Assembly (NCBI GenBank): GCA_963657075.1
Contig: CAVKLF010000001.1
Location: 40,749 to 104,748 of the forward strand
From: a bacterium
GTDB lineage: Bacteria; Bacteroidota; Bacteroidia; Bacteroidales; Bacteroidaceae
Reading direction: 5' to 3'
Length of the DNA: 64,000 nucleotides
Shown: positions 29,201 through 52,239 of the stretch, piece by piece
Numbering within the stretch: the stretch's first letter is position 1
Layout: each line of letters begins with the position of its first letter
The notes under the pieces: generated by a model
What the model was told of the DNA's origin: nothing
Seen by the model: the letters and a program-made list of their open reading frames with translations, nothing else
Databases searched by the model: none
Translations under genes and position numbers: made by a program

Positions 29201-32200
29201 TGACAGGCAAGAGAAAGGTGATACTCTCCCGATGGGACAAACCTGTGCGCATCGTGCCGGACAGCGAGGTGGCTGATGTCATCGTGAACGATATGTTCAA
29301 GGACAAGAAGGTGGTGATGCCTACCAATGTGGTTACTCCAAGTCTCAGAAAAGAGTTGGAGAAGCGTGGTGTGCCCTTCGTGGAGACCGATAACAGAGGA
29401 AGAATCGTAGGAGGTAAGAATGATGGGGTGCATTATTCCAAGGTGTATGGCAAGAAGGCTACTTCGAAGTTGGCTTTGAATGAAAATCCTGACACCATCG
29501 GAGCAAAGGAGCTGAGAATCCAAAAGCTGCGTGATAGCGAACCAATAAGAATCTCTGGAACGGAAATTCCTTCATCTGAGGATTTGAAGCAATACAAGAA
29601 GAATGCCTTGGAGTATGGAAAGACCTTACAGGGTACTTATACCAACAAGGATGATGGTACTACCATCCAGCTGCAACGTGGGCGTAAAAATGGCGGTGTG
29701 CGTGAGGTGTTACAGCACAACTACAAGGATATTCCCCATTTGCAAAGTGTTGCTGCGATACCTCAAATTATAGAGAACAGCATCTACATTGACAGCAGGG
29801 AGAACCAAGACAGAGCAAAGAACCCTGATGTGTCGGAGTACCGCTATTATGTCTGTGGGCTGAAGATAGGTAAGGAAGACTATACAGTGAGGTCTGTTGT
29901 TGCTGTGGACAAGAATGACAATCGCTATTATGACCATAAACTGACAGATATAGAAAAAGGAAAGCTTCTCGATTACTTGAATCAAGAAGCCCTTTATAAT
30001 GTCGGTTTTGGCACAACGCCCAGCACGAAGCTTACTACCGATATTTTCATTGGCAAAGATACGGTTTTAAAATCAATCCTCCAAACAAATAAGCAAGAAA
30101 TTGCAAAAAATGTGCAAAATACCGTCAATCGGCTTGGTGGTGCTGAGGCTAACGTATATACCTCTTTGGATGATGTTCCTGAGGAATATCTGTCGGAGGT
30201 GGAGCAGGGAGCCAAGGGATGGTACGACCCGGCTACTCATACCGTACACGTCTATCTACCCAACTGTGCCGATGCCAACGATGCCCAGCGCACTGTCTTC
30301 CACGAGAAGATAGGGCATGAGGGAATGGAGGTGCTGCTTGGTGGAGAGAGTGGCGTGAGGAAGTTTGCCAACTTCGTGTATAAGTCAGTGGGGAAGAAGT
30401 TGAGGGGAAAGATACTCGACTTCGCCAACAAGTACGACCCCGACTGGAAGAATCCCGACCGCATGAACGTGGGCACGCAGGAGTATATCGCCCATCTTGC
30501 CGAGGAAGGGCCACTGACAGCCGAGGACTTCTCGCTTTGGACGAAGATCAAGCACTACCTCATCAAGGCTCTCAAGAAACTTGGCATCCGTGTGCCCGGT
30601 CTGCTGAACGACAAAGACCTTCGCTATTACCTGATGAAGGCAGGAAAGGCTCTGCACGTCTGGGACAATATGCCGAAGGAGAAGCAGGAGGCGATGATGG
30701 CACAGGCAAGCAATGCCGAAATCAAGGACGCACTGAAGGATGGTGCAGGAAAGGGCAAACCAAGGCAAAAGAAAGGTGAGAGTGCCATCCAGTATATGAA
30801 GCGAGTGATGGAATGGAAGCGGTGGAAGGAAGCCCGAGAGGACGAGAACGACCCCGAGCCACCTCAGTTCTATGACTTCGATAAGGATGTGGAAGGCAAG
30901 AAGGAATGGGAGCAGCTCAACAAGGATTGGAGAAGCCGTCACGGTATAAGTGAAGAGCTATATGCTGCAATACATAATCGAGATACAAATCTTGTAGATG
31001 CAGTTCCATATATTGTTGAGGTTCCCAAACGTTTGGTAGAGGTTGCAGATGAGATAAATGGTACTGACTATTTCAGAAAGCACAACCTTGCTGTAAGTTC
31101 AAAAGATTTGGAAGCAGTTTTGCCCTTAATCGATGAATTGCGAAATGGCAATGAAGATGTAAAGATAGGTGATGACGGACGTGTCGTAGACAAAGATTCC
31201 GTCGCTAGCCAAATAGCTAGGCGAATAAACTCTATGCACTTGTTGGATGCTGATTATGTTCCGTTAAAGTCCTCAGACATTTTGCAAGAGCAGGTGCATT
31301 CATTGATAGAAAAGGATGTCTTTCCCACTGGCAAGAATAAGGAAACAATCAATAAGTCTAGATTGCCTATGAGAGAAGAGGGTGAGACTGATGATGATTA
31401 TGCAAAACGCATTAAGGAATACGAGAAGTGGAATGCAGCTGTAAACGACAAGGATGACCCTATGCCCGATATGTTCTCCTTCGAGAAGGAGAGGCAGAAG
31501 GCGGCAAGCAAGAAGTATGAGGACTGGCTGGCAAGGCATGAACTGCTGGAGCAGGAGCAAGCCGATTTGGACTTGTACGAGGGCAAGATATATCCTGCCG
31601 AGACCAACCCTGAGGCTGATGCTCTGGAGCAGCGAGTGATGCAAGACCTAGCAGAGGTGACCAGCACAGACGTGAGCAAGGAGGGAGCAGCCCGAACCGT
31701 GAAGCATGCCGTGATCCACAGACGCAAGAATATGGAAGAGGCGAGTGCCGACGATGCCATCTACATCAATGACGTGAAGAACAGAATCGAGAAGATGGCA
31801 GATAGTGGTGTGTTCGACAAGTTGCTTGCCGACTATCAGGGCAAGCCCAACAAGGCAGAAAAATTGGCTGAGGCTATACCTTATATAATAGAAGCCCCCA
31901 GAAGGTTGCGTGACATTGCCCACGACCTGAACAATACAGGTGCTTTCGACAAGGGACATATCCATATCCAGCCAAGCGATGTGGAAGCTATCCAGCCTTT
32001 CGTGAGCGACTTGGCATCAGAGACCTACAAGAAGCATATCGAAATAAAGAATGGCGAGGAGGTGGAAGTGTATGATAATCCACAAGCCGTGAGCGAGTTG
32101 GCCAGCAAGATGGCACAAGCTATCAATGCGAACCACCAAGGCGAGGAAGGGTTTGTGCCCATTGACGGCACGGACATCCTGAGCGAGCACGTCTTGCCGC

Positions 32201-34968
32201 TTGTAAGGCAGAAGGTTGTGCCAGTGGGTATCGACTACCAGAACATCACGCCCGAGATGCAAGCTACCCTTGACTCCATCCGAGACTGGTATAACTACAC
32301 CTACGACTGGTTGAAGGACAACCACACCTTGCGTGAGGACACAGGCTTCAATGCCGACTACGTAAACCATATTTGGGATAAGGAGAAGTCGGACAAGCAA
32401 GCGTACGCCATGTATGTAGAGAACCGCCAGCGCACCAAGAGTCCCAACGAGAAGCCGAGAACCATCAGTACCTTGATGGAGGGTATCAGCGTAGGACTCG
32501 TGCCGAAGACCACCGACATCACCAAGATGATGGCGTACTACAGCCGTAGCAACATCGAAGCATGGGTGAACAAGACGATGCTGCAAGAGTTGAGTGGGCT
32601 GAACGTGATAGAGCGAAACGAGGAAGGAGAAATCGTATCCTCAGACCCACTGCTTTCTTCTGTGGCACCTATCAACTTGGAGCAGTACAGATACTTCGAG
32701 ATACCCGGCGTTGGTCCGGTATGGGTGTATAATGTATCGCCCAAGGAGGTGAAGGTGAAGAATCCTATCACAGACAAGGAGAAAACACTGTATAGAGAGG
32801 CAAGTGCAGGAGACAGGTTTGGTGTGGTGTTCGACACCTACCAGTCATCCCCTTTCTGGAAGGCATTCGACACCTTGGCATCCAGTGCCAAGAAGTTGGA
32901 GCTTGGTTTCAGCGGATTCCATGCAGGAGCATTGACCGAGGTGTATATGGTGCAGAATGCGATAGAGTTTGGCCCTAAGAAAGCACTCGCCTACTTTATG
33001 AAGTACATCTTTGGTGATACAGCTAAGAACCACGAACTGCCTTGCTTTGCCAATCCTGAGGACTTTCAAGAGGCCGCAAGCCATCTGGTGAAGTTTGGAG
33101 CGACCAACGACTATGCGGCAGCAGACGTGCAGAATATGTTCGACAACTTCCGTGACAGTATGATGAAGATACAAGAGAAGTTGGGTAACGGAAATGTGCT
33201 GTCGAAGGCTGGTGCTACAGCTTCAATCCCATTTAAGGTAGCATCACAGATGCTTTCGCTTGTGAACAAAGGTATGGACCGGGCACTGTGGGACTTCCTG
33301 CATGATGGACTAAAACTCGCTACCTATCGTATGCGAGCCGAGAAAACCAAGGAACGTGCCAAGAAATATGGCTGGACAGCGGAGCAACTAAGCAAAGCCC
33401 TTGACGAGGACGGACAGTTTGTGAACGATATGTTTGGAGGCCAGCACTGGGACGTTTTGGGAGCCAGCCAAAAGAGAATCAAAAAAGCAGGAAGATGGCT
33501 GCTTTCCCCCGACTGGAATGCCTCCACTACACGCCACTTCTTGGCACTGACAGGATATGGCTCTGTATGGAACGAGGCAACGATGGAGAACTTCAGAGAC
33601 TACTATAAGCGTCTATGGGGCGCAGCCAGAGGTAAGGGCGAGCTGAAACCCGAAGACTGGGGACGCACGACGAGACAACTTTCGTCCCTGCTATGCTACG
33701 GACTTGGTTTTATGGTATTCTACGAGGCTTTTGCCAATGGCGTCAATGCCGCCTTCCGTGCCATGGACGAGGAGAAGGAGCGAGAGAAGGCAGAGGAAAT
33801 CCGCAAGACGAACCCCGACTACAAGAGTCCATACGAGCTTGCCTATCCTGACGGAATGAAGTGGTACGACTACTTGATGCGAGGGAATACCCTTGGTCAG
33901 CAGAGCAAGATCTTCGTGGGAAGATATGCCGATGGCACAGAGATGTATATCCGACATGGCAAGCAATTTAGGGAGATACCCGAGTATTTCTTCAATGAAA
34001 AGGGTGAGTTTGAATTTCCTGGTCCGATGGTGCAGCGAATGATAGGCAAGGCCAACCCAATAGTGAGAATGATACACGATGATATAAACTATCTGAGCGA
34101 CTTCCAGGCCAGCCATGCCGACCAAGAACTGCAACGCAAGTACGCAAAGCTTGTTGGGAACGAGCCTTTGGGCAAGGGCATCGGACTGCTCCACAAGAAT
34201 GCTCTCTACTGGGCGCCATTCTTAATACCGAGCCAAGAGAATAAGGAGTTCAAGGCAGCGGACTTCTTCTTCCCTTCATCCAAAGGATTCTCTCCTTGGA
34301 AGGCGCAGAGTTATTTCAAGGATTTCATCCTGAGCGGAGACATGGAAGGTGTGATGATGACCTACAATAGCTGTGAGCGTAACGGCATAGATCCCGAAGC
34401 TCAGATTGCAGCCGCCATTACTTCTGTGAAGGCATTGGAGAGTGCAGAGATGAAGGACGGTGTTACTTCCTTGCAGATAGCCAGCGAGCGATTTGATGAG
34501 GCCAAGAGTATCACGGAGAAGAAGAAAATGCGCCAGAAGATGAAGAAGTTCCTCTCTCAGAGCGAGTACAAGGTATTCACCCAGAAAGAGGCTCTGGACA
34601 TGGTGCAGAGTTACCTGAATGGCGAGGATGACTTAGAGGAGTTACAGAAGGCTGAAAACAAATACTTGATGAAGGCGAAATCAGAGGATGTGACAGAGGA
34701 CTGGAGAATCCAATCAGTATGGAACGGAACGATGGACACCTACCAAGAGTATCAACGCTTGAAGGACGAGGATAAGGTGAAGGCAAACGCCTTCAAAAAC
34801 AACAAGACCAACAAACGGCTGTTTGAGGCAAGGAAGGCAATCTCTGCCGCCAAGAAAAAGATGAATAAAGCCAAGAAAGAAATGGACGGTAAGAACGATG
34901 CCGCCAAGCTGGTTGAAATCCGCACGACCAGAAAGAAGCTCTTGGAAACGCTGAACGGAATGGAATAG
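17239..34968 (+). CDS. Giant polyvalent phage protein, 5909 aa (InPase, PBECR-type nuclease, MuF-C-like, LPD23, LPD3-like, zincin metallopeptidase motifs)
   Basis: TEAQKKAGNYKKGH...DGDHID...FDEHK (~22970-23430); GDVDLVWG...WLLTAYE (~23910-24255); HEYQH; MuF-C-like (~25800-26260); ATGWERGADGKWRYE; HEIQH; YYDHKLT (~29520-29960); HEKIGH. Confidence 0.85.
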   Translation: MFDEQDRKYFYDEFKNNGYQVGSYDDFKKDLNNKEDRDWYYNEAKNMGYDVGTQADFDKMVLEAAPSSPAPSASPSPQNTKQEQLVPKTEAKQAQKPSATIAKPQEQPSSVNESPSLISQALGMIPNVDAGNIGKEQRMGSMLNNFSLGGSEEQPQQQGEKAPQQAQVQEATTSPTGTASASPSIVNNEGLLDAKLSNYIENWKQRPDQENGYFQNMVADLLADGTANTNEEAVNIVKSALGRYANRQAMDATSKVVSALPDDTVQDAERNIEAQWYSHGVQDKLKQEAQSMGISYDDYVAQFLKPAMVQNLVQKYGQNYRNMAEDIATRLYSHDEHVQDRLMNQDINDALASVIGKYVSPSVVDEYNKAQEAGGKAFSEGMEGSQYVPANLRLGTAIASQYEANQAKDPKKVLNTLQKKFGKLYQNQQFLNDIADAASGVMQQYNMQGGLSGDPKQFQPMINAALKNELDQLEVKGMMPKGSAEYIMKTGLGNTIVGKITRKAMQTDYQNWLEDIANQQYQPGFWENVASGALTFAGDAWSYWLPGAVGSKITKSMLAKAEGRLATDLWAKGMERKMAERAAKVLIGKSKGMALKSGAAHGAATFGGQSAISKPIDEAYHTGQFDEDGKIYKPSVGKILANALGEVAKQSAVGAIMQGGTVANMIGKGRGLATNILADVGGKVVDSSIMTGQQMLERMAHDPNFKPTGKDAAESFLESMANLTAIGLPGMMGKYARFKDAREFNRKYDFNEQDIAELKKHGYDGLRDAFEKVGIYNKVNKASDVHVEESPNPQSHGWNTDLAENIGIKKLGEPKNVDRPIIEAPEVKALTNEYMDLLSDKSVPEVLKAKMMAVVEGKRPSSFSPMIDTNIEEADDGKVYLETLNKDGGVIERLEYSSLDEAQKAEKKLEYEKTLGLASVLEGEYHKEYLDDHLFDLYNQAAQKYYMGEKLSDEEKAAVYLRQNAVEIGDIMRKRLSGTSLTAEEQKQVEAYQHFYSSAMENSSVMRDFVSTFEDSNDVPRGTLRRALESKDKKYASLVESYLKELYNSIKLKREMRQTAEELHKTSEGEKNNEVEGKDASTEVTPSEEVTETPAEKPASSPTSSDVPPTEPPTPPVGGGASSDAEGTPAEGSGASNEPKVASNGTNVATSGSNVASSEPNVATSDAYVMGQNAYKNGDAEGLKAIDHNFDVAELRLQRAFNGDEKMISLIYRAIEEGRDMETFVQQRAGHLTPAQKDAIRKYAEAMDAKKGVMEAVDHADDGYGEALTEQLWPYATEDGSIVPVTLQDGKTAFLKKANEYGGAFVATTDENGKPVVRLSSSAQIKEKGEPVPFQDYVNQLAAQKHEETLQSFNTMLDGSGFKRGDIVSVSMEEGLKPSEVKVVGYTGDGRIVLTDTDVDINSKIDPDDLEYLSKDEFDAMRTNALRNTINAELDAEDAQRANEETAKAEAEKQERYKKGIWGYTTGQPDYADPQTDPKVAAEYLQETSGADRKDLFSNIAAEKQSLQTRIKQLREHIANNEEWLSLNADLDPKNAETRTLANKQMQGQITDLQTRFDNWNKIRSAVMTPEEAAAIKKDRTQKIADAGVNEGDIVPIEGREVAVLSDEELKKQYPTMDEASDYITSERKRIYQIQSDEVQNEIDGVDKVLKQYTDGEIDLEPEQIRELNTTKAQLQARQQNLTESAKDLKTQADKLKKLYLKENKVARAKAIGDMTPAGQRAVKVANAIEGGNLSLLNSIYEEVRGATDFNSTEPDTLEEYVASNIGRFSLNYEGKEKNGVLSNGLQQETGLGRKDFNKLQILAKAGEGKTVAEFVHGLYNGMPEHLRAMGYNDTSIRNAFLELVRSAESYSDLKNYTLNNKVYDAEQKMQELERQKAEMMEAEDEGAVDQQGNGKKFAERLQNAIAETETEPTEAQKKAGNYKKGHLQFGGYDYTVETPKGATRSGVDEQGNPWSVTMHDTYGYIKGKIGVDGDHIDMFVNDDADLDTFDGNVFVVDQVNPETGEFDEHKVMYGYPSQEAATEAYLANYSKGWKGIGKVTSVPKATFDKWLESSDRKTKPFADYAMIQKAKAQKVSYNPDTHEWTGIPEEVITDDKPNRYGVIDGFTKNPRIYAYYDTKSRTTWLRVETIDNQAETPERINTVLEKEGYQVHTNGESSGYVDFDNYADAEKFAKHVDDVEKYVHSPKDNQGNPINEDGSLKLGSINSVDGIPFEQIKPIGTGAFGNIYNQFKGKPDEAVAFLMQQQGGEALGALYHDAVGDVDLVWGKTGTKHSDGFGLAKLVKYHPEVVANLQGILSSMKVDKRSPNRVNLSSDKYKAGIRLDYDGKSKTWLLTAYEKEVPSDSSKTTDTATSSLSGDTALTQSEGISSAGKGTNNSDNSQEKGQENAGNLPFGAQMNMEDLPFSRDVKEVKPSEMTESQKVAYDAVSTMLKKAGVPVKVISNEDMEKVAEAQDNIVLSRLMNDPRLRFYIKTPEQKKAANSAYDWASQNRPDKHKQYAIVNMDKPNEMPEYFEKKDLAERARKYYSNEWKVGNYKAFDLDKPFEEQVKDVKGNVPDEFDPYKAAKEHANKLADLKNQQENLVKQRDDLQKQYNDYEYKRNKTFFDALMDYRIAHPGEKVPDSFIKEATEKSIGKNDPRQELNRQMAEMNAKIAEISKQLIANGEKISFLKGKGTVYGYTDGKEIVLNQEHLNPNTPIHEYQHLWRTAAKAKNPDLIAHGDKLIMQTSLFVDLKKDPNYKHLSNEQLCDEAFSQLTGEDGAKILEDMAKEAIKENPLDTAKELSVINKLKDWLKKFWYWTLDTFTKWKPEDIRKMTLEDIRNLVLRDLAKGVDPRAKLNESAAKETRELKKANDAFNQRLDELAKNPNQKDKVLRLGRSSTFLKDGGIADADIELDYDKLMRKSKQGYVHEHPFDVADVNDLPLAVAYPISVFDNTNGKNGGQVILTELKKEDRNFIVAVRTESQNRKGGVVLKVNKIVTLFPKDAKGVINWFNQGKATNIDKEKALHFIEALQNHPGTTITSEELNSAANVINSFETAKENGEKISLKDDKTLVGVHNITEEKLRKALKLGGFANPSVAVIDTGKSAHNSFGEISFIAPSALVDKRTGGTAGTWTTDAYTQRYPSVERQMSDKGYENFKKWVDGLDYPDSAKMEIERQAKDALEDNRDPAWELMYLKEKGIDIKGYDSKVNYLWQDIIEEHPSVEDILESMKSDPKLNEDVTKLAKSEITAPTWRNISQEVSAQMSEELGRRVSTISPKVRAKTKEIFERDYAPSLFNKDGSPKKADVKKVVAKMVQQYEDTKQYSFYKSKVRASSYVHNNGLYADYIRWQENKLDEFGTKNRLFRGFKNDGTRKYVPETLENVSKAMRDDADGQTNGSEYTTFGSFIAKLADRVDSTDEMRANKDKLSSNEDKQDFYEKWEEVYYDLAKFLYNDVAAGEQRLHDIVTKSDPKRYAKKEYGITLTPAFMKKLDALKKAVREELKSNYFETKFERPVHLDEFAAAVVPKDLGADVRKGLEQSGLRLYDYDAKKEGDRQRAFDKAIHGGDNIRFMFAGERGAANADEAEEKTYRMDNLKVAEEMERGDKDAKAIKLATGWERGADGKWRYEMPDAKIKDTIDIGGGHIVKRYEEDMLWTDGKLGKVVDAPELFKAYPQLKDIKLSTDVIMNDMPSNGAYDHNTKTITIHADELKYLNSILNHEIQHAIQDIEGFAQGGSQRQAATAAFQQKLKEDYIEAIDRLDEVCKKNGISRLAALDEDFDASDNTELKDAISSFRAAQKKILASPYDRYLSLAGEVEARNVQKRLGMTDEQRRNTLASETEDVNRDEQIVMNGDGASYSIVEDPKTIEKLDKEETVKVYRAMQLGEDGKLYPPMAAKVKGKFVQPIELGKWEQADERPDLADKNGLFTLNKGNGKTLKATYNPYLHTSRTPLNDQFSEAQSRPNIVTVEVEVPKSELTSGYRAEKAKDAVGEVEWKAGIIQGQLTGKRKVILSRWDKPVRIVPDSEVADVIVNDMFKDKKVVMPTNVVTPSLRKELEKRGVPFVETDNRGRIVGGKNDGVHYSKVYGKKATSKLALNENPDTIGAKELRIQKLRDSEPIRISGTEIPSSEDLKQYKKNALEYGKTLQGTYTNKDDGTTIQLQRGRKNGGVREVLQHNYKDIPHLQSVAAIPQIIENSIYIDSRENQDRAKNPDVSEYRYYVCGLKIGKEDYTVRSVVAVDKNDNRYYDHKLTDIEKGKLLDYLNQEALYNVGFGTTPSTKLTTDIFIGKDTVLKSILQTNKQEIAKNVQNTVNRLGGAEANVYTSLDDVPEEYLSEVEQGAKGWYDPATHTVHVYLPNCADANDAQRTVFHEKIGHEGMEVLLGGESGVRKFANFVYKSVGKKLRGKILDFANKYDPDWKNPDRMNVGTQEYIAHLAEEGPLTAEDFSLWTKIKHYLIKALKKLGIRVPGLLNDKDLRYYLMKAGKALHVWDNMPKEKQEAMMAQASNAEIKDALKDGAGKGKPRQKKGESAIQYMKRVMEWKRWKEAREDENDPEPPQFYDFDKDVEGKKEWEQLNKDWRSRHGISEELYAAIHNRDTNLVDAVPYIVEVPKRLVEVADEINGTDYFRKHNLAVSSKDLEAVLPLIDELRNGNEDVKIGDDGRVVDKDSVASQIARRINSMHLLDADYVPLKSSDILQEQVHSLIEKDVFPTGKNKETINKSRLPMREEGETDDDYAKRIKEYEKWNAAVNDKDDPMPDMFSFEKERQKAASKKYEDWLARHELLEQEQADLDLYEGKIYPAETNPEADALEQRVMQDLAEVTSTDVSKEGAARTVKHAVIHRRKNMEEASADDAIYINDVKNRIEKMADSGVFDKLLADYQGKPNKAEKLAEAIPYIIEAPRRLRDIAHDLNNTGAFDKGHIHIQPSDVEAIQPFVSDLASETYKKHIEIKNGEEVEVYDNPQAVSELASKMAQAINANHQGEEGFVPIDGTDILSEHVLPLVRQKVVPVGIDYQNITPEMQATLDSIRDWYNYTYDWLKDNHTLREDTGFNADYVNHIWDKEKSDKQAYAMYVENRQRTKSPNEKPRTISTLMEGISVGLVPKTTDITKMMAYYSRSNIEAWVNKTMLQELSGLNVIERNEEGEIVSSDPLLSSVAPINLEQYRYFEIPGVGPVWVYNVSPKEVKVKNPITDKEKTLYREASAGDRFGVVFDTYQSSPFWKAFDTLASSAKKLELGFSGFHAGALTEVYMVQNAIEFGPKKALAYFMKYIFGDTAKNHELPCFANPEDFQEAASHLVKFGATNDYAAADVQNMFDNFRDSMMKIQEKLGNGNVLSKAGATASIPFKVASQMLSLVNKGMDRALWDFLHDGLKLATYRMRAEKTKERAKKYGWTAEQLSKALDEDGQFVNDMFGGQHWDVLGASQKRIKKAGRWLLSPDWNASTTRHFLALTGYGSVWNEATMENFRDYYKRLWGAARGKGELKPEDWGRTTRQLSSLLCYGLGFMVFYEAFANGVNAAFRAMDEEKEREKAEEIRKTNPDYKSPYELAYPDGMKWYDYLMRGNTLGQQSKIFVGRYADGTEMYIRHGKQFREIPEYFFNEKGEFEFPGPMVQRMIGKANPIVRMIHDDINYLSDFQASHADQELQRKYAKLVGNEPLGKGIGLLHKNALYWAPFLIPSQENKEFKAADFFFPSSKGFSPWKAQSYFKDFILSGDMEGVMMTYNSCERNGIDPEAQIAAAITSVKALESAEMKDGVTSLQIASERFDEAKSITEKKKMRQKMKKFLSQSEYKVFTQKEALDMVQSYLNGEDDLEELQKAENKYLMKAKSEDVTEDWRIQSVWNGTMDTYQEYQRLKDEDKVKANAFKNNKTNKRLFEARKAISAAKKKMNKAKKEMDGKNDAAKLVEIRTTRKKLLETLNGME
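20641..20732 (+). repeat. 21-bp (7-aa) tandem repeat inside the giant gene
   Basis: ASNEPKV-ASNGTNV-ATSGSNV-ASSEPNV-ATS; AATGTGGCAA recurs every 21 nt. Confidence 0.7.
24254..24350 (-). ncRNA. Putative antisense structured sRNA 1 (after the PBECR domain)
   Basis: - strand TTG-N20-TACCTTTG promoter (24357-24387); 17-bp closing stem with one mismatch 24257-24273/24333-24349, internal hairpins, U tract. Confidence 0.45.
26251..26326 (-). ncRNA. Putative antisense structured sRNA 2 (after the MuF-C-like domain)
   Basis: - strand TTG-N20-TACATTTG (26333-26363); bulged stem AAGCCCTCCACTT/AAGTGAGGAGCTT, inner TCCAG/CTGGA hairpin, U tract. Confidence 0.4.
29953..30047 (-). ncRNA. Putative antisense structured sRNA 3 (after the LPD3-like domain)
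   Basis: - strand consensus TTTG-N20-TATCTTTG (30054-30085); stem 29998-30006/30037-30045, then hairpin GCTTCT..AGAAGC (29964-29990) and U tract. Confidence 0.45.
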
Positions 34969-35277: not shown

Positions 35278-37353
35278 ATGCCAGAAAAAGGAGTAATAAA
35301 CGATATTTCGAACTATGCAGAGCCAGGTCCTGACTCGCTAGAAGGCGTGAGCACACGGAAGTTTGCTCAGAGCCAAAGCAACCTGCTTCTGATACAATGG
35401 GCATGCCAATACTTTTATGATATGGCAGAATTGAGGAAGAAGTGGAAGAGGGCACAGGACTTCGTGATGGGCAGACAACTGGAAGAGTTGATAGAGTGGA
35501 ATGGAAGAAAGATAACCATCCGTCAGTATATGGAGCTGAAAGGTATGCCTATACTGGAATACGACGTGATAGGCGACAAGCTACTTTCGCTCGTGGGACT
35601 CGTGCGCCAGCAAAGGAGCACCGCTTCTTGCAGTGCCGTAGACCCCAACGAGGAAGACTACATCAGTTTCTTCAACGAATATCTACGTCAGAACGACAAC
35701 ATGAACGACAGGCAAGAGATAGATGCCAGACTGTTCTACTTCTTCTGTGTGTTCGCCTTCGTCGGAATGAAAACCTACTATGGCAGAAAAGACGGCAAGA
35801 AGGGAATCTTTGACGAGGCAGTGGACATCTATAAGATAGCCTTGCCACCTTTTTTCAAGTATGACCTGAGTGATGTGGAGTTTATCGCAGAGGCACACGA
35901 TATGACTTGGCGAGAAATCATAGCCACCTTTACAGACGGTAGCAAGAAGGAGGTGGACGAGTTGAGTCAGATTTATCTACAGACGCAGCACCACTTCGCA
36001 CCCGAACAGACCTATCACCCTATAGGCGAGGCACAGGTAGCAGGTTTTGACGATTTCACCCATTCCTCAGTAGTAGGCAAATACCGAGTACTAGAGATAT
36101 GGACTAAGGAAACAAGACCAGCCATTTGGGTACATGACTATAGTACGGATGAGGCAGGCTTCGCACCTCTCAGCGATGAGGCTTATTACATCGAAAAGCG
36201 CAAGAAGCTAGAGGAAGACAACATCATGAAGGACGAGAACGGCTTGCCAGTGCTCGGCGATGATGGCGACCCCATCTACTACATAGACCCATCGGAGTTT
36301 AAGACCATCGAGATAGAGCACCAAGCTGAGACCTTCTGGTATCGTCGCTATCTGACACCGAACGGCTATCTGCTAGATGCAAGGGAATCCCCCTACTACG
36401 TATTGAGAGACGGCTACCGAGAGAGCATCAATCCATACACGTGGGTAGCATATCCATGCCTCAATGGTGAGGTAAGAAGCTTTACCATGCGTGCCGAGAA
36501 CAACCAGAGGACGCTGAACCACTACATGATGATGGTGAACTTCTTGGTAGCAAACGGAGCCAAGGGCAGTCTGCTAGTAGATGAGAACGCCTTGAGCGAA
36601 AAGCAGACCGTAGAGGAAATGCAAGTGAACTACGTGAAGACAGACGGTGTGGTAATCTGGAACTCCAAGAACGGAGGCAAGCCCCCTCAGAACTTGGTGA
36701 ACAAAAGCGTGCCAGCAGGAGTTGATTTCATGGTGCAGTTTGCCAAGCAGATGGCAGGAGAGGGCACAGGCGTACAAGGCGCACTGCAAGGCCAGCACTA
36801 CAGCGGCTCCAGCGGCAAGCAATACCAGCTAGAGAGGGAGTCGAGCAGCACCACCGTCATGGACTTTGTGGAGAGTTTCAATAGTTTCAAGGTGAGAATC
36901 GCCAAAAAGAAGCTATACTTGATACAGGAGTTTTGCACCGAGCATGACAGCGTGAAACTGACAGGAGAAGATTTCAGTATCTACTTCAATCCCGACACCA
37001 TGCGAGACATGGATCTAGACGTAGCCATTGACCTTGATGCTTACAGTCCACTGATAAGAGATGCCAACAACGATATGTTCTGGCAGTTGATGCTGAATGG
37101 CAAGATGGATCCATACACCATGTTCTCAGTAGGACACTTCCCCGGCACAAGCAGGGCGAAGAAGTATTTTAAGGAACAAGCGGAGCAACTGCAAGCCCTG
37201 CAAGCGCAGCAGCAAGCGCAACAACAAGCTAGTGGGCAGATGCCAGCCGAACAGACCCAGCAACAGCAGCAACCTTCGGGAGGCGGTGGTGCAACCCACC
37301 TGAAAGATACAGGTGGAACCTTGGGAGGTTTGGCGGATTTGCCTTCGGCATGA
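35278..37353 (+). CDS. Portal protein (P22-like)
   Basis: 691 aa with podoviral portal-like features (EMAGEG-like QMAGEGTGVQGALQG...SG motif region, Q-rich C-terminal barrel); next to terminase. Confidence 0.75.
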   Translation: MPEKGVINDISNYAEPGPDSLEGVSTRKFAQSQSNLLLIQWACQYFYDMAELRKKWKRAQDFVMGRQLEELIEWNGRKITIRQYMELKGMPILEYDVIGDKLLSLVGLVRQQRSTASCSAVDPNEEDYISFFNEYLRQNDNMNDRQEIDARLFYFFCVFAFVGMKTYYGRKDGKKGIFDEAVDIYKIALPPFFKYDLSDVEFIAEAHDMTWREIIATFTDGSKKEVDELSQIYLQTQHHFAPEQTYHPIGEAQVAGFDDFTHSSVVGKYRVLEIWTKETRPAIWVHDYSTDEAGFAPLSDEAYYIEKRKKLEEDNIMKDENGLPVLGDDGDPIYYIDPSEFKTIEIEHQAETFWYRRYLTPNGYLLDARESPYYVLRDGYRESINPYTWVAYPCLNGEVRSFTMRAENNQRTLNHYMMMVNFLVANGAKGSLLVDENALSEKQTVEEMQVNYVKTDGVVIWNSKNGGKPPQNLVNKSVPAGVDFMVQFAKQMAGEGTGVQGALQGQHYSGSSGKQYQLERESSSTTVMDFVESFNSFKVRIAKKKLYLIQEFCTEHDSVKLTGEDFSIYFNPDTMRDMDLDVAIDLDAYSPLIRDANNDMFWQLMLNGKMDPYTMFSVGHFPGTSRAKKYFKEQAEQLQALQAQQQAQQQASGQMPAEQTQQQQQPSGGGGATHLKDTGGTLGGLADLPSA

Positions 37354-37996: not shown

Positions 37997-40156
37997 TTAT
38001 ATCATGCCAGCCAACTCAGGAGCCACAGGCTTACGGTTGCGTAGTCGTTCACGTTCGATGTCCTGCTTAGACTTGAACGGCACGATTTCTGGAGAAGGCA
38101 TATCCTTCTCTACGTAGAGAGCAATGGCACGAGCCATGACACGGTCATCATGCTTGCCAGCAACAGCACCGTAGCAGTCGTTTTGCTGGTAATAGAGATA
38201 GTAGGTGCATTCATCGATGGCAGCAAGTTCACGCTCCATATAGCCACCATCCCGGATGATGCGAGCCATCGTCTTAACCACAGCCACCTTAGTAGCCCTA
38301 TTCGTATTGAATCCCCATTTCATCTCGATGTTCTTCACCTTCTTCAACTTGGACTGAGACGCACTGTACAGGTTGTCGTACAGAGGAAGGAGGATAGGGA
38401 AGAACAACTCAGACTGATTGCCCTCAGTATTGTTCATACGAGAGTAAGCCGTATTGTTCTCGACAACCAGGAACGCATCATTATAGAAGTGAGCTATCTG
38501 TGCGCAGCGCATCGCCAGTTGGTCAGCATCGCAGTGACCATGCCACTCAGCCACTATCTCAGGAACGCCACCATACAATTCATCATAGCGATCGAGCACC
38601 ACAATATCGGAGAAGTCGGATGTCTTGTGAGAGCCACCAATATCGCACGCCACGATGTACCGATGGCGCACGATTTCCGAGTTGTCGGGGCCAGCCCAAA
38701 CTTTGAGTGGCCCACCAGCACGTTCGACAAAGCGGATATTGTCCATGCAAGCCTTATCAGCAGCATCGTAGGAATCACCCTCGATGTCGCCCACCATGAT
38801 AGGTTCGATGCCCTTGCAATCGTTCTCCATCTCCTTCAGCTTATATGGGTCGAATACCGTAGTACCAGAGAAGAGGAAGGCTTCCACGTCATCGGACGGG
38901 TACTCTTGACGCATATCATCCAGTTCATTGTACTTCTTGCACTCAGTAACATACCAATGGATGCCTTCCAGTGTAGCATGCTTGATTTCCCAAAGCCACC
39001 AGAAGTAGCTGCCATGATATTGTTCATCCTTGCGGTTTTTCCAAAGCCAGATGGCAAATTCCTCTTTTTCTTCCTTCGTCTTGAAAGGAAGGGTGTACTT
39101 CTCAATATCAAACCATGGTACGAAGTAAGGAGTGTAGATAGACAGGCGGTTGCCATCCTTGTCGAAGGAGTTGGCACGCACCCATTCATCATGGAACTCA
39201 TTCTCACGTCCATTAGGCGTAGACTCACGCACGATGAAGGTATAAGGCACAGTAACACGGATAGACGATACCGCAGCCTTGATCACCTTGGCAGGAGTCC
39301 ACTCTGTAGTATTCGGGAAGAAGGCTTCCTCAGTGATATGCGCCATAGCGGCATCACCCGAACGGCAGGACTCAGGGTTGCGAGCCGAACCAGTCTGAAT
39401 CTTACAGTTGCGAGGAATGAGGTACTTAATATTATTTTGAGTACTTGAAGTCCTGAGTTTGCGAGTATCTTCCTTGAAAGACTCTCCAATCTCATAGAAC
39501 AGCCATGTAGGGATAGCATTCATCAGTTTCTCATACATATCGAACACCTGTGTGGCAGATGAAGACTGGTGACCGATGATGTTACTGTTCCAGTTGGTCA
39601 TCCAGAATATCTGAATCCACGCCATATAAATCTCTGTGGCAGTAGAACCACCCCACTGGCGGCATTTAAGCAGTATGACCAAGATGCTGTGCAGCTCCCC
39701 ATGAAGGCGCATCTGTTCGAAGGTCTTGATAAGGCCCACCTGTGCATGGTTGAGTAGGAAAGGAATGTCATCGCCACCATCCTTATTCTTGATACGAGCA
39801 TAGGCATAGGCAAAGAAATAGAAGTCGTGCTTGCAGCGCAGACGGATAAGATAGCGGAAGACGGCATCACGAGCCTTCTCCCGGTCAGAGTCTGCCATAT
39901 ATTTTTCGCAGAATGCCTCGATAGAACCGCACTTGATGATGGCACAGAACTTCTTTTCCTTCAACATCTCAACAGGTAGCCAGAGAAGCTTGCCATTGAG
40001 GAAGTCGGAAAGTTGGCACTCAAAGCGAAGACCGGGCGCATTCTCTCCAGTAATGGGACGATAAGTAGCGAGAAGAATTTTCAATCTCCTCTTATTTTCC
40101 GAAAGAACCTCTTTGAGTTCCTTTTCGGGAAGTTGCTTCTCAGAACGAATCTCCAT
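37997..40156 (-). CDS. terL: Terminase large subunit
   Basis: LKCRQWGGST Walker A, HITEEAF Walker B, ESTPNG motif, CDIGG and HDDRVMA nuclease residues. Confidence 0.92.
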   Translation of the reverse strand: MEIRSEKQLPEKELKEVLSENKRRLKILLATYRPITGENAPGLRFECQLSDFLNGKLLWLPVEMLKEKKFCAIIKCGSIEAFCEKYMADSDREKARDAVFRYLIRLRCKHDFYFFAYAYARIKNKDGGDDIPFLLNHAQVGLIKTFEQMRLHGELHSILVILLKCRQWGGSTATEIYMAWIQIFWMTNWNSNIIGHQSSSATQVFDMYEKLMNAIPTWLFYEIGESFKEDTRKLRTSSTQNNIKYLIPRNCKIQTGSARNPESCRSGDAAMAHITEEAFFPNTTEWTPAKVIKAAVSSIRVTVPYTFIVRESTPNGRENEFHDEWVRANSFDKDGNRLSIYTPYFVPWFDIEKYTLPFKTKEEKEEFAIWLWKNRKDEQYHGSYFWWLWEIKHATLEGIHWYVTECKKYNELDDMRQEYPSDDVEAFLFSGTTVFDPYKLKEMENDCKGIEPIMVGDIEGDSYDAADKACMDNIRFVERAGGPLKVWAGPDNSEIVRHRYIVACDIGGSHKTSDFSDIVVLDRYDELYGGVPEIVAEWHGHCDADQLAMRCAQIAHFYNDAFLVVENNTAYSRMNNTEGNQSELFFPILLPLYDNLYSASQSKLKKVKNIEMKWGFNTNRATKVAVVKTMARIIRDGGYMERELAAIDECTYYLYYQQNDCYGAVAGKHDDRVMARAIALYVEKDMPSPEIVPFKSKQDIERERLRNRKPVAPELAGMI

Positions 40157-40184: not shown

Positions 40185-40664
40185 TTAAATGTTGAGTTTT
40201 TGTGCTCTACTGATTAATCCTTCTGCCTTGGCATAGATGAAGCCAATGGCAAAGAGAATGAGATGATAGGCTCCAGCTATGTGCGGAATGAGACACCCCA
40301 CGCAAAGGAGGACCAGCATCTGCCAAAAGGCGAGACGCTTGTACCGATAGAGCCACGGAGCATTAAAGCCCATGAAGAAAGATATGATGACCGACGCACC
40401 CAGAACAGGCAAAGACGGATAGTAGACGAAAGACAGCGCAGCCGAGCCTAGCCATGAAGCCAGCAGCCGATGAGCACGAAACTGATGGTGCACCATGAGC
40501 AAGCACCAAGCATTTACAGCCCAATGGACAAAGTTGGCATGTCCGAACATATAGACGAAATGCACATATAGAGGCGAGGAAGGCGACACTGCAAGGTATG
40601 GATGCAGCGGAATGATGAAAGCCATCAAGATGCAGACCGTGAAAGTAATATATAATGTACGCAT
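40185..40664 (-). CDS. Rhomboid-family intramembrane serine protease
   Basis: YMFGHANFVHWAVN, LGAS (catalytic Ser), AYHL (catalytic His); multiple TM helices. Confidence 0.8.
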   Translation of the reverse strand: MRTLYITFTVCILMAFIIPLHPYLAVSPSSPLYVHFVYMFGHANFVHWAVNAWCLLMVHHQFRAHRLLASWLGSAALSFVYYPSLPVLGASVIISFFMGFNAPWLYRYKRLAFWQMLVLLCVGCLIPHIAGAYHLILFAIGFIYAKAEGLISRAQKLNI

Positions 40665-40679
40665 GGACGGAATAGAGAT

Positions 40680-41117
40680 TTAATGTTTGGTGATGATAGG
40701 TGATTTCATTTTTTTGAAGTGGGCAGACACCAGTTTCTGGATATACCTAGGTGCAATGCCCAGATGAGGCGCAGGTTGCTCCAAAGTGATTTCCACGAGC
40801 CGATAAGTGGAAAGCTCCGCTCCCTGTCTCTGTAGCCGGACGTTTTGAAACTCACAAAAGAAAGCTTCGCACAAGGATTGTTTCTTTTGCTGGAACTTGC
40901 CGAACTTGGGGATTTCCCCTTTGAGCCTTCGGCAAACATATCTATAAGCCGTGTCGAAGGAGAGATAATAACAAGGAGCAGGCATCTGTGAAACATAATC
41001 GCATATCTTAGCCGTAGTGGTAGGCCACTCGACCAACCGCTTCGCCTTTTGATAGAGATAGATGACCTCTCTGTCTCTATCAATGTTTATTTGGGATATA
41101 GAATTTTTGTGTTTCAT
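40680..41117 (-). CDS. Hypothetical protein, possible DNA-binding regulator
   Basis: Basic ~145 aa with two PAP-x-phi motifs (MPAPCYYLS, QPAPHLGIA); first gene of the terminase operon. Confidence 0.55.
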   Translation of the reverse strand: MKHKNSISQINIDRDREVIYLYQKAKRLVEWPTTTAKICDYVSQMPAPCYYLSFDTAYRYVCRRLKGEIPKFGKFQQKKQSLCEAFFCEFQNVRLQRQGAELSTYRLVEITLEQPAPHLGIAPRYIQKLVSAHFKKMKSPIITKH

Positions 41118-41147
41118 CGCAAACAAAATTAATGCAGCGGAATGGAG

Positions 41148-41186
41148 AACTTATCAAAAAGTAATGCGAAATTTTCGTTAATTTTG
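41148..41186 (+). promoter_or_regulatory. Capsid operon promoter: half-site AACTTATCA + 22 nt + TAATTTTG
   Basis: Same spacing as the other motif-linked promoters; a divergent TAATTTTG lies on the - strand at 41124-41131. Confidence 0.6.
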
Positions 41187-41212
41187 AGCGCAAATAATTA
41201 AAATGTTATACT

Positions 41213-42025
41213 ATGGCAGATAAAAAGACTGACAATCAGAATGTTAAATCGAAGAGAGATACTTTTCGAGAGCGTTTTTCAAGTCGTTATCCAGAGATGA
41301 ACATGGACGATGAGGATGCAGTATATGGTCAATTATCGACCGATTACGACCACTTCGACCAGAATAACCAAAGGATGGACGAGTTCAACAATATGTTGCA
41401 AGAATATCCTCAGGCACCAGGGCTGGTAACAGGCATGATGACCAAGAAGAATGAGGATGGAAGCGACTTTAGTTTTGTGGGCTACTTGATAGACACACTA
41501 GGGCAAGACTTCGTAGATGCCATTGAGGGTGACGCTGAGGCTCGCAAACGTCTAGAGAAGAGCGAGAGGGACAAGCTAGAGGCAAGCAAGAAGCTAGCCG
41601 AAGGCAAGGAAACCTTGGCTAAGTCGATGGAAGAGGAAGACGCAGAACTGGATGAAGCCATCAAGGAAGCGAAGATGAAACCAGAGGCTATCAAGGACAT
41701 GATAGACTGGCTCTATAAGCGCAGTGACGATGGCGAAGACCATGATGACGATGGTTTTGTATGGCGTGCAGCCCGGTATGGATTAAAGAAAGCCGACTTC
41801 TTGCGCCTCTTTCAAATCAAAGACTTCGACAAGGCAGTGGCAGATGCCGAGGAAAGAGGCTACAAGCGTGGCAAGAACGAGAAAATCGACAACCAGAAGC
41901 AACTGCACGAGGGCAAACAGGGCGGCAAGAAGAACATCAACATCAGCGGTGGTGGCGGTGCTCCTTCGATACCCCATCAGAACAATCGCACGGAAGACGT
42001 ATACCGTGGCATGGTAGGTATGTAA
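41213..42025 (+). CDS. Putative capsid scaffolding protein
   Basis: Acidic coiled-coil protein directly upstream of the major capsid gene. Confidence 0.55.
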   Translation: MADKKTDNQNVKSKRDTFRERFSSRYPEMNMDDEDAVYGQLSTDYDHFDQNNQRMDEFNNMLQEYPQAPGLVTGMMTKKNEDGSDFSFVGYLIDTLGQDFVDAIEGDAEARKRLEKSERDKLEASKKLAEGKETLAKSMEEEDAELDEAIKEAKMKPEAIKDMIDWLYKRSDDGEDHDDDGFVWRAARYGLKKADFLRLFQIKDFDKAVADAEERGYKRGKNEKIDNQKQLHEGKQGGKKNINISGGGGAPSIPHQNNRTEDVYRGMVGM

Positions 42026-42064
42026 GATTTCAATCAATAATTATCAATTAATATTTAACAGATT

Positions 42065-43639
42065 ATGAGACAGTTTAAAAAATGGTTTGGATTTATGATG
42101 GCGATTGCCGTCATGATCCTCAGTGGTGGCACATCGTATGCTATGGCAGAGACCCCTCCATCAATTCCGACAGGAGAAGGTGGCGGTGGTGCTACGGGTC
42201 CTTTGGATGGCCCGGGTGTAGCTGGCAAGGGCCCTCAGTGGCAGGGTGGCGCACAAGAGCAGCAGGAGAGCATGGGCAACTGGGACTACTACATAAGCTA
42301 CGTAAACCCTACCGTAGTGGAGATGAAGTTGGAGAGTTGTCCTATTGACCAGATACTTCGTGCAGCCAAGAAGATGACACCAGTAAACTCAGTGAAAGTA
42401 GAGTTTTACAGTATCGGTCAGCGACCCATCATCTCGAAGCTTACAGAAAAGGTAAGTGCCACTACCAACGGTAGCACCGTAACATTGAAGGTAGAGAATA
42501 CCACCGCATTCGACAACGGCGACGTTATCATGGTAGATGGTATCTATGGCTACGACGAGGACGGTATCAACCGCAGCACCTTGAAGCCATTGCAGTTTAG
42601 AGTTGTCGACAGCGACAACGATGACAACCCAATCTGCTATGCCCTGAACGGCAAGAAGAACACCACCAAGAACCTGAACCGTGACATTCCAGAGGACATA
42701 CCTGTAGGCACCACCTTGCTCAGACTTGGTAGAGCAGCAGGTGAGAAGGAGGTGGAGACAGGCAGTTACTACGCTATGCCAGACAAGAGCTTCCAGTATT
42801 GCCAGCGTTTTATCATGCAGGTAGAGGAGTCTCTTATCGACCGTATGAGTCAGAAACAAGTGAAGTGGGACTTCACCCGACAGGAGAAGATGGCTATGGA
42901 CGATATGCGTTACGGTCAGGAACGCAGCGGTCTCTTCGGAGTACGCTCTATGTCTAACGGTGGCAAGGATGTAGGTCTCACCTATACCATGGGTGGTATT
43001 TTCTGGGAGGCAGGAAAGGAACTTACCATCGGACACTGGGAGAGAAAGATGACCGTAGACGGCAATGGCAACAAGGTAGCCGTGACCGCCAAGGTAGACA
43101 CCTCAGAAGCCCAAGACGGTTCATCCATCAAGGAGATGCCAGTATACGAATACGTAATCGGTGAGAAAGACCTGACCCGATTCATCGCAGCTATCTTGAA
43201 GGGTGCAGGTAACTCCAGCCGTACCAAGCTCCTCTTCGTAGACAACTTGATTTATCAGGCATTTGCCAACCTACGTTCCAACAAGCGCATCATCACCCAG
43301 ACCGAAAAGGACTACCAAGGATGGAAACTCGACTTCGAGACCTTCGAGAGTATGGGTACCAAGATTTTGATTTATCGTCATGATGCCTTCAACTCTTGGG
43401 GCATGGATGGTAGAGCCTTCTGCCTCGATGCAAGATACCTCGACAAGTATGTGTTCGGTGTATGGAGCAGACACGAGTTTAATGCCAAGGATCTCTTGAT
43501 TCGCAACACCGCAGGTGTAGTGATGGAAGAGTATAGCTGCTGGGTACTTACCTTCCCTGATGCCCATGCACGTGTGCAGCGCCCCGTATTCGACGTACAG
43601 GATGCAGTGACCGATGAGCAAATCTACGAGGCAGCGTAA
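42065..43639 (+). CDS. Major capsid protein with N-terminal signal/TM segment
   Basis: Position after scaffold; YCQRFIMQVEES...QEKMAMDDMRYGQERSGLFG...MGGI resembles N4/SU10-type MCP backbone; followed by a hairpin. Confidence 0.7.
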   Translation: MRQFKKWFGFMMAIAVMILSGGTSYAMAETPPSIPTGEGGGGATGPLDGPGVAGKGPQWQGGAQEQQESMGNWDYYISYVNPTVVEMKLESCPIDQILRAAKKMTPVNSVKVEFYSIGQRPIISKLTEKVSATTNGSTVTLKVENTTAFDNGDVIMVDGIYGYDEDGINRSTLKPLQFRVVDSDNDDNPICYALNGKKNTTKNLNRDIPEDIPVGTTLLRLGRAAGEKEVETGSYYAMPDKSFQYCQRFIMQVEESLIDRMSQKQVKWDFTRQEKMAMDDMRYGQERSGLFGVRSMSNGGKDVGLTYTMGGIFWEAGKELTIGHWERKMTVDGNGNKVAVTAKVDTSEAQDGSSIKEMPVYEYVIGEKDLTRFIAAILKGAGNSSRTKLLFVDNLIYQAFANLRSNKRIITQTEKDYQGWKLDFETFESMGTKILIYRHDAFNSWGMDGRAFCLDARYLDKYVFGVWSRHEFNAKDLLIRNTAGVVMEEYSCWVLTFPDAHARVQRPVFDVQDAVTDEQIYEAA

Positions 43640-50853: not shown

Positions 50854-51633
50854 ATGGCAATACAGACAAAAACATTGAGCAGCTGGCTCGCAGAAAATCC
50901 AACGGTGGTAACCAACGCCATCAAGTCGCAGATTGATGCTCAGGTACAGAGCTACATCAAATCCAACCCAACGGTGATAACAGACGCTATCGGCAACTAC
51001 CTTCGTCCTCTTCAGGATGGCGTATTCATCGGCAAGGCACAGAAAGAAACATGGGGAACGTATATGCGAATCGAGCCTTGGCAGACTACCAATATTGGCA
51101 TCACATCGGCAGATGCAGATGCCATCGTCATTCAGTTCGGAGGCTACCGCTTAGGCATCTCCCTCACTGAGCCAGATGCGCTCGCTTGGGGAAGCCAAGC
51201 GGTAGTAGGCTATCAAACCACTAGCGACATGAACACCTTCGACGGTAAGACTCGCACAGCAGCCATCATGGCCAGTTCGTCATTCAAGAGTGATGATGCA
51301 GCTACCTACGCCGTATCTTATGCGTACAACTATAGCAAGACGCACACTGGTGATGCTGGCGGCGATAGCACCATCGGTGCACATTCTTGGTGGCTGCCTT
51401 CCATGGGCGACCTTGCGCTAATTCATCAGCATTTCGAGACAATCAACCTCGCCCTTACTCGCATCAAGAACGCAGGCAAGCAAAGCGTTTCTTTGTTGCA
51501 GCGGGCGAATTACTGGTCTAGTTGTGAGGCTTCGGGCACGGGTGCGTGGAATCTGAATTTCAGCACTGGCGGTCGGCTCGGCAGCAATAAGGTTTCGAGT
51601 AAGTGTCACGTTCGTCCAGTTACAGCATTTTAA
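50854..51633 (+). CDS. DGR target protein with C-terminal C-type-lectin-like variable domain (probable receptor-binding protein)
   Basis: WWLPSMGDL, YWSSCE, AWNLNF, VRPVTAF; 3' end contains the VR. Confidence 0.88.
   Translation: MAIQTKTLSSWLAENPTVVTNAIKSQIDAQVQSYIKSNPTVITDAIGNYLRPLQDGVFIGKAQKETWGTYMRIEPWQTTNIGITSADADAIVIQFGGYRLGISLTEPDALAWGSQAVVGYQTTSDMNTFDGKTRTAAIMASSSFKSDDAATYAVSYAYNYSKTHTGDAGGDSTIGAHSWWLPSMGDLALIHQHFETINLALTRIKNAGKQSVSLLQRANYWSSCEASGTGAWNLNFSTGGRLGSNKVSSKCHVRPVTAF
51500..51627 (+). repeat. DGR variable repeat (VR)
   Basis: 128-bp match to 52240-52367 with 15 mismatches, all at TR adenines. Confidence 0.95.
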
Positions 51634-51741
51634 TCTCTTTATCTCTTCATCTCTTTAACTCTTTCCGACCGAAGGGAGGCAAGCAAGGTTGGAGGGAGGC
51701 GGAGAGGGAGATTCTTAACACGAAATATATAAAAAATATCT

Positions 51742-52089
51742 ATGGCACTCGCAAGCAGCTTGCAGATTTATAAAGACACGTTTGAGTTGGTTGACAAGTT
51801 AGTCACTTGGGCTGAGAACTTTCCGAGAAGACATAAGTTCACGCTCGGGGAGAAGCTCATCAAGGTGTCGTTGGAACTATTCGAATATATCCAGTTGGCA
51901 AACATGAGTATAGAGAACAGACAACGACACATGATGGGGTTCAGAATCAAGATGGAACTACTGAAAACCATTCTCAGACTGTGCTTTAACCGAAAGTTGT
52001 TTGATGAGAAGAAGGCAGCGGATATTTGCAGATTAACGACCATCATCGGTAGACAGACTACAGCTTGGGGTAACTCCAAGAAGGGCTAG
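51742..52089 (+). CDS. avd: DGR accessory variability determinant (Avd, four-helix bundle)
   Basis: 115 aa, basic, FPRRHKFTLGEK...IGRQTTAW; lies between VR and TR. Confidence 0.85.
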   Translation: MALASSLQIYKDTFELVDKLVTWAENFPRRHKFTLGEKLIKVSLELFEYIQLANMSIENRQRHMMGFRIKMELLKTILRLCFNRKLFDEKKAADICRLTTIIGRQTTAWGNSKKG

Positions 52090-52239
52090 TCCCCTTGGAG
52101 TAAAAGTGAGAGTATGATAGGGCTACGGCTCATCGTAGAAACGATGCTCCTTATTTTAATGGTCTTGCCGCAGTCAAGGCGCACTGTCATTTGTACGGCA
52201 GAGCGCACCTGCTAAGATGTATAAGCAGAGCAAGAAAAT

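Follow-up and report, generated by a model that had tools for sequence, protein, structure and literature searches.

A phage rhomboid protease gene paired with a hydrophobic leader on the major capsid protein points to a possible membrane route of head assembly in Bacteroidales tailed phages

In phage heads of the HK97 type, an N-terminal propeptide is removed. The capsid proteins of tailed phages are regarded as soluble, and the known maturation proteases are soluble enzymes. According to the account in PMC7411985, T4 and SPN3US proheads are held at the inner membrane until proteolysis. In bacteria, the rhomboid AarA of Providencia stuartii trims an N-terminal extension from TatA, licensing assembly of a large complex (as described in PMC3712462 and PMC2941825). 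In the system presented in PMC3237569, a dedicated rhomboid, rhombosortase, is co-distributed with GlyGly-CTERM, a tripartite signal composed of a Gly/Ser motif, a helix, and a basic segment; the link between the two was first inferred from co-occurrence. Here, we describe a 64,000-nucleotide stretch of DNA (the window), part of contig C1 of a gut Bacteroidales genome (completeness 75%), in which a temperate phage encodes a predicted rhomboid next to its large terminase subunit and, divergently, a major capsid protein (MCP) with a signal-peptide-like leader. From comparison of sequences, we put at roughly 0.6 the probability that the job of this rhomboid is to cut the MCP leader, though some lineages manage without it.

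The phage rhomboid has in common with GlpG of E. coli and H. influenzae (PF01694; PDB 2NR9/2IC8) the six-helix fold, the H-x4-H-x3-N and G-x-S motifs, the helix-6 His, and the predicted orientation. Unlike GlpG, it is only ~145–175 amino acids (aa) long, has a short L1 loop without the conserved W-R pair, and is phage-encoded, at a fixed place among head and packaging genes. The proposed substrate is like TatA in its small P1 residue, hydrophobic P4 residue, and short N-terminal extension, whose removal we propose; however, TatA remains membrane-embedded after a cut on the N-terminal side of its helix, whereas the candidate site in the MCP is C-terminal of the helix, the product would be a soluble shell protein, and the P2′ position is mismatched. 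Relative to the rhombosortase system, the capsid leader is a mirror image placed at the N-terminus, its cargo is a viral MCP, and co-occurrence is one-way. GlyGly-CTERM is a C-terminal signal, which the capsid leader is not; the pair described here would work like a GlyGly-CTERM system but is not one. As in T4, SPN3US, and HK97-type phages, capsid precursors would be processed by a phage protease, but in those phages a soluble prohead protease acts inside the head on an MCP without a membrane segment, whereas here the anchor is on the MCP and the protease is intramembrane.

The same gene order, rhomboid, and leader are found in three isolated Bacteroides phages, BS-TP4, BKO1-TP3, and BF1-TP2 (PQ571277, PQ571269, and PQ571263; PMC12694917), whose MCPs are 31–35% identical to that of the window. 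The rhomboid is automatically annotated in their GenBank records; the main text of PMC12694917 does not use the word “rhomboid”, nor does that of two gut-phage papers, and the supplements of all three may list the annotation. In a 2025 review of rhomboids, the words “phage”, “virus”, and “viral” do not occur. Full-text literature searches, with subscription papers and supplements outside their scope, returned no report of a phage rhomboid tied to capsid assembly. Thus, the separate parts are of known kinds, and their pairing is real, conserved, and apparently undescribed.

An earlier note on this DNA had recognized a rhomboid gene beside the terminase gene by its HxxxxHxxxN, GAS, and catalytic His motifs. 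These are present as H42-x4-H47-x3-N51 (the oxyanion side), G89-A-S91, and H134-x6-G141, with catalytic Ser91 encoded at 40392–40394 and His134 at 40263–40265; the terminase gene follows on the same strand, starting 28 nt past the end of the rhomboid gene. Among 147 diverse homologs, H42 is kept in 145, H47 in 147, N51 in 146, G89 in 145, S91 in 145, and H134 in 143, and the catalytic residues are kept in 216–219 of 219 loci, the 3 gaps being open reading frames (ORFs) cut by locus ends. A profile made from close homologs retrieved 390 representatives, and the family profile matched GlpG structures (E 1e-11) with catalytic residues in register. The AF2 model had a predicted local distance difference test score (pLDDT) of 97; the top 28 rows of a Foldseek search with it were all rhomboid-family chains (TM 0.56–0.70, probability at least 0.98), with a best E of 6.5e-3 and no row at E ≤ 0.001. 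The window protein alone gave no Pfam match at the gathering score and no PHROGs match. Since 88 of 137 family members match PF01694 (Rhomboid), and the syntenic orthologs of BF1-TP2, BS-TP4, and BKO1-TP3 exceed its cut-off (3/3), the miss reflects divergence; Pfam likewise misses the known rhomboid of another genome (G001), and the absence of a Pfam match was therefore not taken as evidence. Together, sequence and model indicate that the ORF encodes a real rhomboid, and it looks active. Readings of it as a pseudoprotease or as a shadow-ORF artefact were rejected. In the family, Lys+Arg counts are 1.9, 2.3, and 3.1 in loops 2, 4, and the C-terminus, versus 0.2 and 0.1 in loops 3 and 5; by the general charge-based rule of membrane orientation, the protein is predicted to be oriented as GlpG is, with its active site toward the periplasm.

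The divergent ORF matched Pfam SU10_MCP (PF17236; E 2e-13, 50.7 bits against a cut-off of 24.1). The top Foldseek matches of its model were a phage VP1 capsid (E 9e-19) and the crAss001 capsid, and SU10 and HK97 capsids were also matched; phmmer against PDB sequences gave 0 matches. The fold and domain matches identify it as an HK97-fold MCP, so that the earlier assignment stands. The signal-peptide-like N-terminus claimed for it is there in all its parts (Table 1), down to the disordered linker: in the model, a helix spans residues 2–20 and confidence is low at 20–77. Over 12 residues, hydropathy peaks at 2.63 in the leader and at 1.31 elsewhere in the protein. Of 120 listed MCP homologs, 118 have a hydrophobic leader; it is retained across the clade down to ~15–30% identity, and its dN/dS of 0.107 (39 distinct sequences) indicates purifying selection. 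AT content in the preceding 30 nt is 85% for Met1, where position −3 is A in 76%, and 53% for Met27, where it is A in 0%. We conclude from the selection and from these contexts that the leader is translated and that Met1 is the real start; a true start downstream of the hydrophobic segment was rejected. Ala28, the last leader residue, is invariant in both capsid alignments and would be the P1 residue of a cut. A shorter counterpart of the Gly/Pro-rich linker persists in leaderless relatives; the linker is therefore likely part of the mature N-arm. In agreement with the earlier note, which had seen no conventional prohead protease, Peptidase_S78 was not found in the genome at its 75% completeness, and no protease family was matched among the window ORFs scanned. 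P22/T7-type scaffolded heads need no prohead protease, and its lack was rejected as positive evidence.

The head-module context (MCP, portal, and terminase) was confirmed in the window, with the MCP gene transcribed divergently from the rhomboid–terminase operon rather than inside it. Elsewhere, the rhomboid is found at 218 of 254 MCP loci, always divergent from the MCP gene. At 171 viral MCP loci, it is in range at 168 and elsewhere in the record at 2; the one remaining record is also without terminase and portal. When loci were picked by their divergent rhomboids, 112 of 156 had an MCP in range, and all 112 MCPs carried a leader (minimum hydropathy 2.27; 52 distinct N-termini, near-copies included). 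Ten rearranged records gave 9 further MCPs, all with a leader. These loci were found with three sub-alignments, the whole-family alignments being too divergent, and the sample is not exhaustive. Across the analyses as a whole, rows L220, L226, L230, and L186 (N-terminus cut or frameshifted), G141 (split gene), and G440 were left out. The coupling is one-way: the rhomboid implies the leader, and the leader does not imply the rhomboid.

The second line of evidence comes from 30 host genomes, mostly of rumen Prevotellaceae, in which head genes are single-copy and scattered over the chromosome. These genomes (G006 and G008–G036; loci L197, L218–L253, L261–L278, and L286–L297) carry the terminase in 30/30 (one partial) and the portal in 29/30 (a few split), and terminase, portal, capsid island, and a marker gene lie at separate sites among housekeeping genes. 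By this layout, they hold a candidate domesticated, gene-transfer-agent-like system; a literature search found no description of it. The marker is the ~145-aa gene found directly upstream of the rhomboid, which is retained where the rhomboid is deleted and therefore marks its position. This gene is the most constant neighbor in the module; an atlas search with it returned unnamed clusters only, and small terminase or late regulator are guesses at its function. In 15 of the 30 genomes, the MCP leader is kept but weakened (hydropathy 1.70), and an intact phage-type rhomboid, unlinked to the MCP gene, is present in 15/15. In 12, the leader is gone (hydropathy 0.09), and the rhomboid is present in 0/12; 3 were unscorable. 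All 12 leaderless genomes retain terminase (one partial), portal, and the marker gene (12/12). The rhomboid slot is empty in 11 of them, with only 17–75 bp left in three, and in the twelfth the contig ends there. Loci L222, with leader and rhomboid, and L223, with neither, are sisters (support 99–100), and family f18 adds four more genomes without either. In two domesticated rhomboids, L277 (G009) and L267 (G011), tandem repeats are inserted in loop 1, with catalytic motifs intact.

On a tree of 113 MCP cores, built without the leader columns, the leader was lost 6 times and the rhomboid 9 times, and no row has the rhomboid without the leader. The phage-type rhomboid is absent at all 6 leader losses, usually by deletion in place. 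Quick trees were used, with L252 left out as short; deep nodes drew long-branch warnings, and the leader losses sit on short, starred branches. Since the rhomboid is lost when the leader is lost, it looks dedicated to the leader, though not indispensable clade-wide. The co-occurrence that the earlier note proposed to check thus holds in one direction: the rhomboid is never found without the leader and is absent at 6/6 losses, but the leader persists without a phage rhomboid. Further genus-wide head modules, apparently domesticated independently, were seen at L299 (G004:C107) with G040–G063, at L524–L544 (genera g26, g58, g74, g98, g99, and g173), and in family f18; the module is present in 24 of 41 genomes around G004 and in 4/4 sampled genomes in three genera.

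The residues around Ala28 also bear on the pairing. With the conserved Ala taken as P1 (7 leaders of the diverse set were unparsed), P4 is aromatic in 118/118 close homologs, which is partly built into the search pattern, and is V, Y, F, L, M, W, or I in 60/90 diverse leaders; an AarA-type rhomboid motif fits at P1 and mostly at P4, but not at P2′. In the 8 residues after the helix, leaders accompanied by a rhomboid (n = 67) average 1.82 Gly and 0.43 charges, versus 0.88 and 1.50 in leaders without one (n = 26), and hydropathy is 2.70 versus 3.07 in the same sets; kin are not independent in these comparisons, and L424, mis-parsed, was kept in the means. The difference recurs within one genus, where G146 keeps both the rhomboid and a spacer reading G-I-S-G-A-G, congeners without a rhomboid read Y-R-D-C, and G366 and G446 have lost both rhomboid and Gly-rich spacer. 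Rhomboid substrates need helix-destabilizing residues near the cut, as set out in PMC2941825, and the Gly-rich spacer of rhomboid-bearing leaders fits this need.

We propose that the MCP is made with a membrane leader, which would enter the inner membrane, and that the phage rhomboid likely cuts at or near invariant Ala28. The Gly/Ser spacer would unwind the end of the helix, letting the hydrophobic-x-x-Ala motif reach the active site, and the cut would detach from the inner membrane either the shell protein itself or a prohead made of it. The capsid body could be kept in the cytoplasm via a hairpin held in the translocon or a re-entrant helix. In lineages without the rhomboid, the leader is altered, and a host signal peptidase or host rhomboid would cut it, or it would be left uncut. 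Membrane insertion, cutting, the identity of the cutter, and the cut position are all inferred. The earlier claim that the capsid protein is released or matured by the phage rhomboid thus gains support for a functional link from comparative genomics, but a strict requirement for the rhomboid does not hold, given the phage and the domesticated lineages described next.

Several observations weigh against this proposal. G080, a complete phage of 59 kb with terminal repeats, encodes the leader but no phage rhomboid; its marker gene lies directly against the terminase gene, and no ORF for a multi-helix protease was seen in it. In the related domesticated module of the G004 group, the leader is kept without a phage-type rhomboid in 24/24 MCP-bearing genomes. 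In a sample of the order (400 Bacteroidales genomes, completeness at least 90%), 30 genomes had the MCP, 20 of which (three of them single-contig) keep the leader without a phage rhomboid; 5 have a phage-type rhomboid, 4 have neither, and 1 was unscorable. In total, 44 host genomes, all with domesticated copies, have the leader without the phage rhomboid; in these lineages and in G080, host enzymes or no cleavage can therefore serve. The terminal Ala motif is also present in rhomboid-less leaders. Every leader loss sits in a host-domesticated element and none in a free phage, and the independent-pair test on the tree (5–6 pairs in the same direction, 0 opposite) is borderline, with a two-sided p of 0.03–0.06.

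Substrate geometry is a further difficulty. Leader charges are +3.4 before the helix and −3.4 after it, which predicts an N-in/C-out topology; with the rhomboid in its usual orientation, the cut site would therefore face the periplasm, the side to which the rhomboid active site is predicted to open, a placement hard to square with cytoplasmic head assembly. The predicted topology would point the capsid body outward, while the portal, the terminase, and the scaffold-like protein are leaderless, and this is the weakest step of the proposal. P2′ is mostly Ala, Asp, or Thr rather than the large hydrophobic residue of the AarA motif. According to Strisovsky et al. (PMC2941825), canonical rhomboid substrates bear the motif N-terminal of the helix, and in the leader it is C-terminal; the same paper allows reversed substrates if the motif can loop back.

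There is also another possible substrate. A gene at 56619–57053 (+), after those for the holin and the GH19 endolysin, encodes a protein with a lipobox and a C-terminal transmembrane helix and without a Pfam match; it looks like a single-gene spanin. In G146 (L552, G146:C2:36988 onward), the rhomboid forms an in-frame fusion with a similar gene.

The incomplete coupling could also mean that host signal peptidase I, or a host rhomboid, cuts after A-x-A, leaving to the phage rhomboid only the removal of the membrane stub or of mis-inserted precursor; even in that role, its retention would be tied to the leader. Bacterial rhomboids perform membrane quality control, as reported in PMC7232013, and many lineages retain the leader without a phage rhomboid. 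The window leader and those of its close homologs have n/h/c anatomy with small residues at −3 and −1; against our proposal, the A-M-A of the window is compatible with signal peptidase I, and P3 is Ala in 114/118 close homologs. However, P3 is Met, Leu, or Phe in 33/90 diverse phage-type leaders and Leu in 11/11 domesticated ones. Most Bacteroidetes signal peptidase I substrates expose Gln at +1, according to PMC5837995; no leader has Gln directly after the conserved Ala (0/118 close homologs, 0/113 diverse leaders). The weakened leader of the rumen domesticated lineages is, moreover, too weakly hydrophobic for a typical signal, yet all of them have the rhomboid. We consider division of labor with a host peptidase unlikely on balance.

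Alternatively, the substrate of the rhomboid could be a different membrane protein of the phage (the spanin-like lipoprotein or the holin, for example), and the leader an independent feature, serving uncut as a membrane anchor or forming a hydrophobic arm inside the prohead. The helix of the spanin-like protein is in the canonical substrate orientation, the gene fusion in G146 points the same way, and leaders survive rhomboid loss. Such a role leaves unexplained why the rhomboid is absent at all 6 leader losses and why spacer composition tracks the rhomboid, and the spanin-like gene persists without a rhomboid in many genomes (a profile search for it in 34 genomes gave no match in 4 of the 7 control records, which were phages or prophage-bearing). 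We regard a different substrate as improbable.

Translation of the working MCP from internal Met27, with the long form a minor membrane-bound isoform, would agree with the Met that precedes the conserved Ala in 82/118 homologs and 47/90 diverse leaders, and with leaderless relatives that begin near that position; the start contexts given above and whole clades without Met there (Y-A-C-A, F-A-A-A) make such a dual start very improbable. That the leader is a true export signal sending the MCP to the periplasm for disposal or a non-assembly role, as its exported-type charge bias would allow, is scarcely credible, given that portal, terminase, and scaffold-like protein lack a leader, that the MCP is the only capsid gene recognized in the prophage, and that relatives have been isolated as phages (reported in PMC12694917).

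The temperate phage occupies the window from ~13,000 onward and comprises an integrase, a polyvalent protein, portal, terminase, head genes, a reverse transcriptase with Avd, and lysis genes (Table 1); protein relatives of the window carry the label Prevotella. The second copy of the 15-bp repeat next to the integrase lies 63,147 bp downstream, outside the window, and this spacing agrees with the 62–68 kb of related phages, so that the prophage looks whole. The polyvalent protein (17239–34968, +; 5909 aa) contains InPase, MuF-C, PBECR1, PBECR5, LPD3, and LPD23 domains. A diversity-generating retroelement (50854–53669, +) consists of a candidate target (50854–51633), Avd (51742–52089), and a reverse transcriptase (52398–53669). 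At 53742–54375, the start of a DNA-methyltransferase-like ORF (labeled by eye) runs into an unrelated frame, suggesting a deletion or a mis-join. An adaptor-like protein (57057–58214, +) has a long imperfect internal repeat of ~19 residues, which is missing from its 158-aa counterparts in L299.

Table 1. Coordinates, within the window, of the capsid–rhomboid region and of associated prophage features.
Feature	Coordinates	Strand	Remarks
15-bp direct repeat, left copy	13025–13039	+	Candidate att core; adjoins integrase
P22-like portal protein	35278–37353	+	No leader
Large terminase subunit	37997–40156	−	Co-oriented with rhomboid
Minimal six-helix rhomboid intramembrane serine protease	40185–40664	−	159 aa; activity predicted
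Conserved uncharacterized protein (marker gene)	40680–41126	−	~145 aa; directly upstream of rhomboid
Acidic helical protein, putative scaffold	41213–42025	+	Ahead of capsid gene; no leader; role suggested by position and composition
HK97-fold MCP precursor (SU10_MCP/PF17236)	42065–43639	+	524 aa; beta-rich insertion at ~residues 120–225
MCP leader, 28 codons	42065–42148	+	Basic n-region 1–6, hydrophobic helix 7–19, SGGTS spacer, YAMA
Acidic Gly/Pro-rich linker	42149–42295	+	Residues 29–77; low pLDDT

Taken as a whole, the picture would be one of a large and abundant clade of Bacteroidales tailed phages whose heads are assembled by a membrane route, with a membrane-anchored HK97 precursor released by a dedicated phage rhomboid, and of a module that hosts domesticated several times into scattered gene-transfer-agent-like sets, some retaining both parts and others shedding the rhomboid; we advance this broader picture tentatively, at slightly under even odds. 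If true, very common gut phages would have a new way of assembling heads (according to PMC12694917, 31.3% of 930 viromes contained BS-TP4), with an intramembrane protease in capsid maturation and a rhomboid whose target is an N-terminal, signal-like anchor. The pair would be one of few natural enzyme–substrate pairs for bacterial rhomboids, would provide a very small active core of ~150 aa, and would test whether rhomboids cut reversed, signal-like anchors; cultured members of the clade exist.

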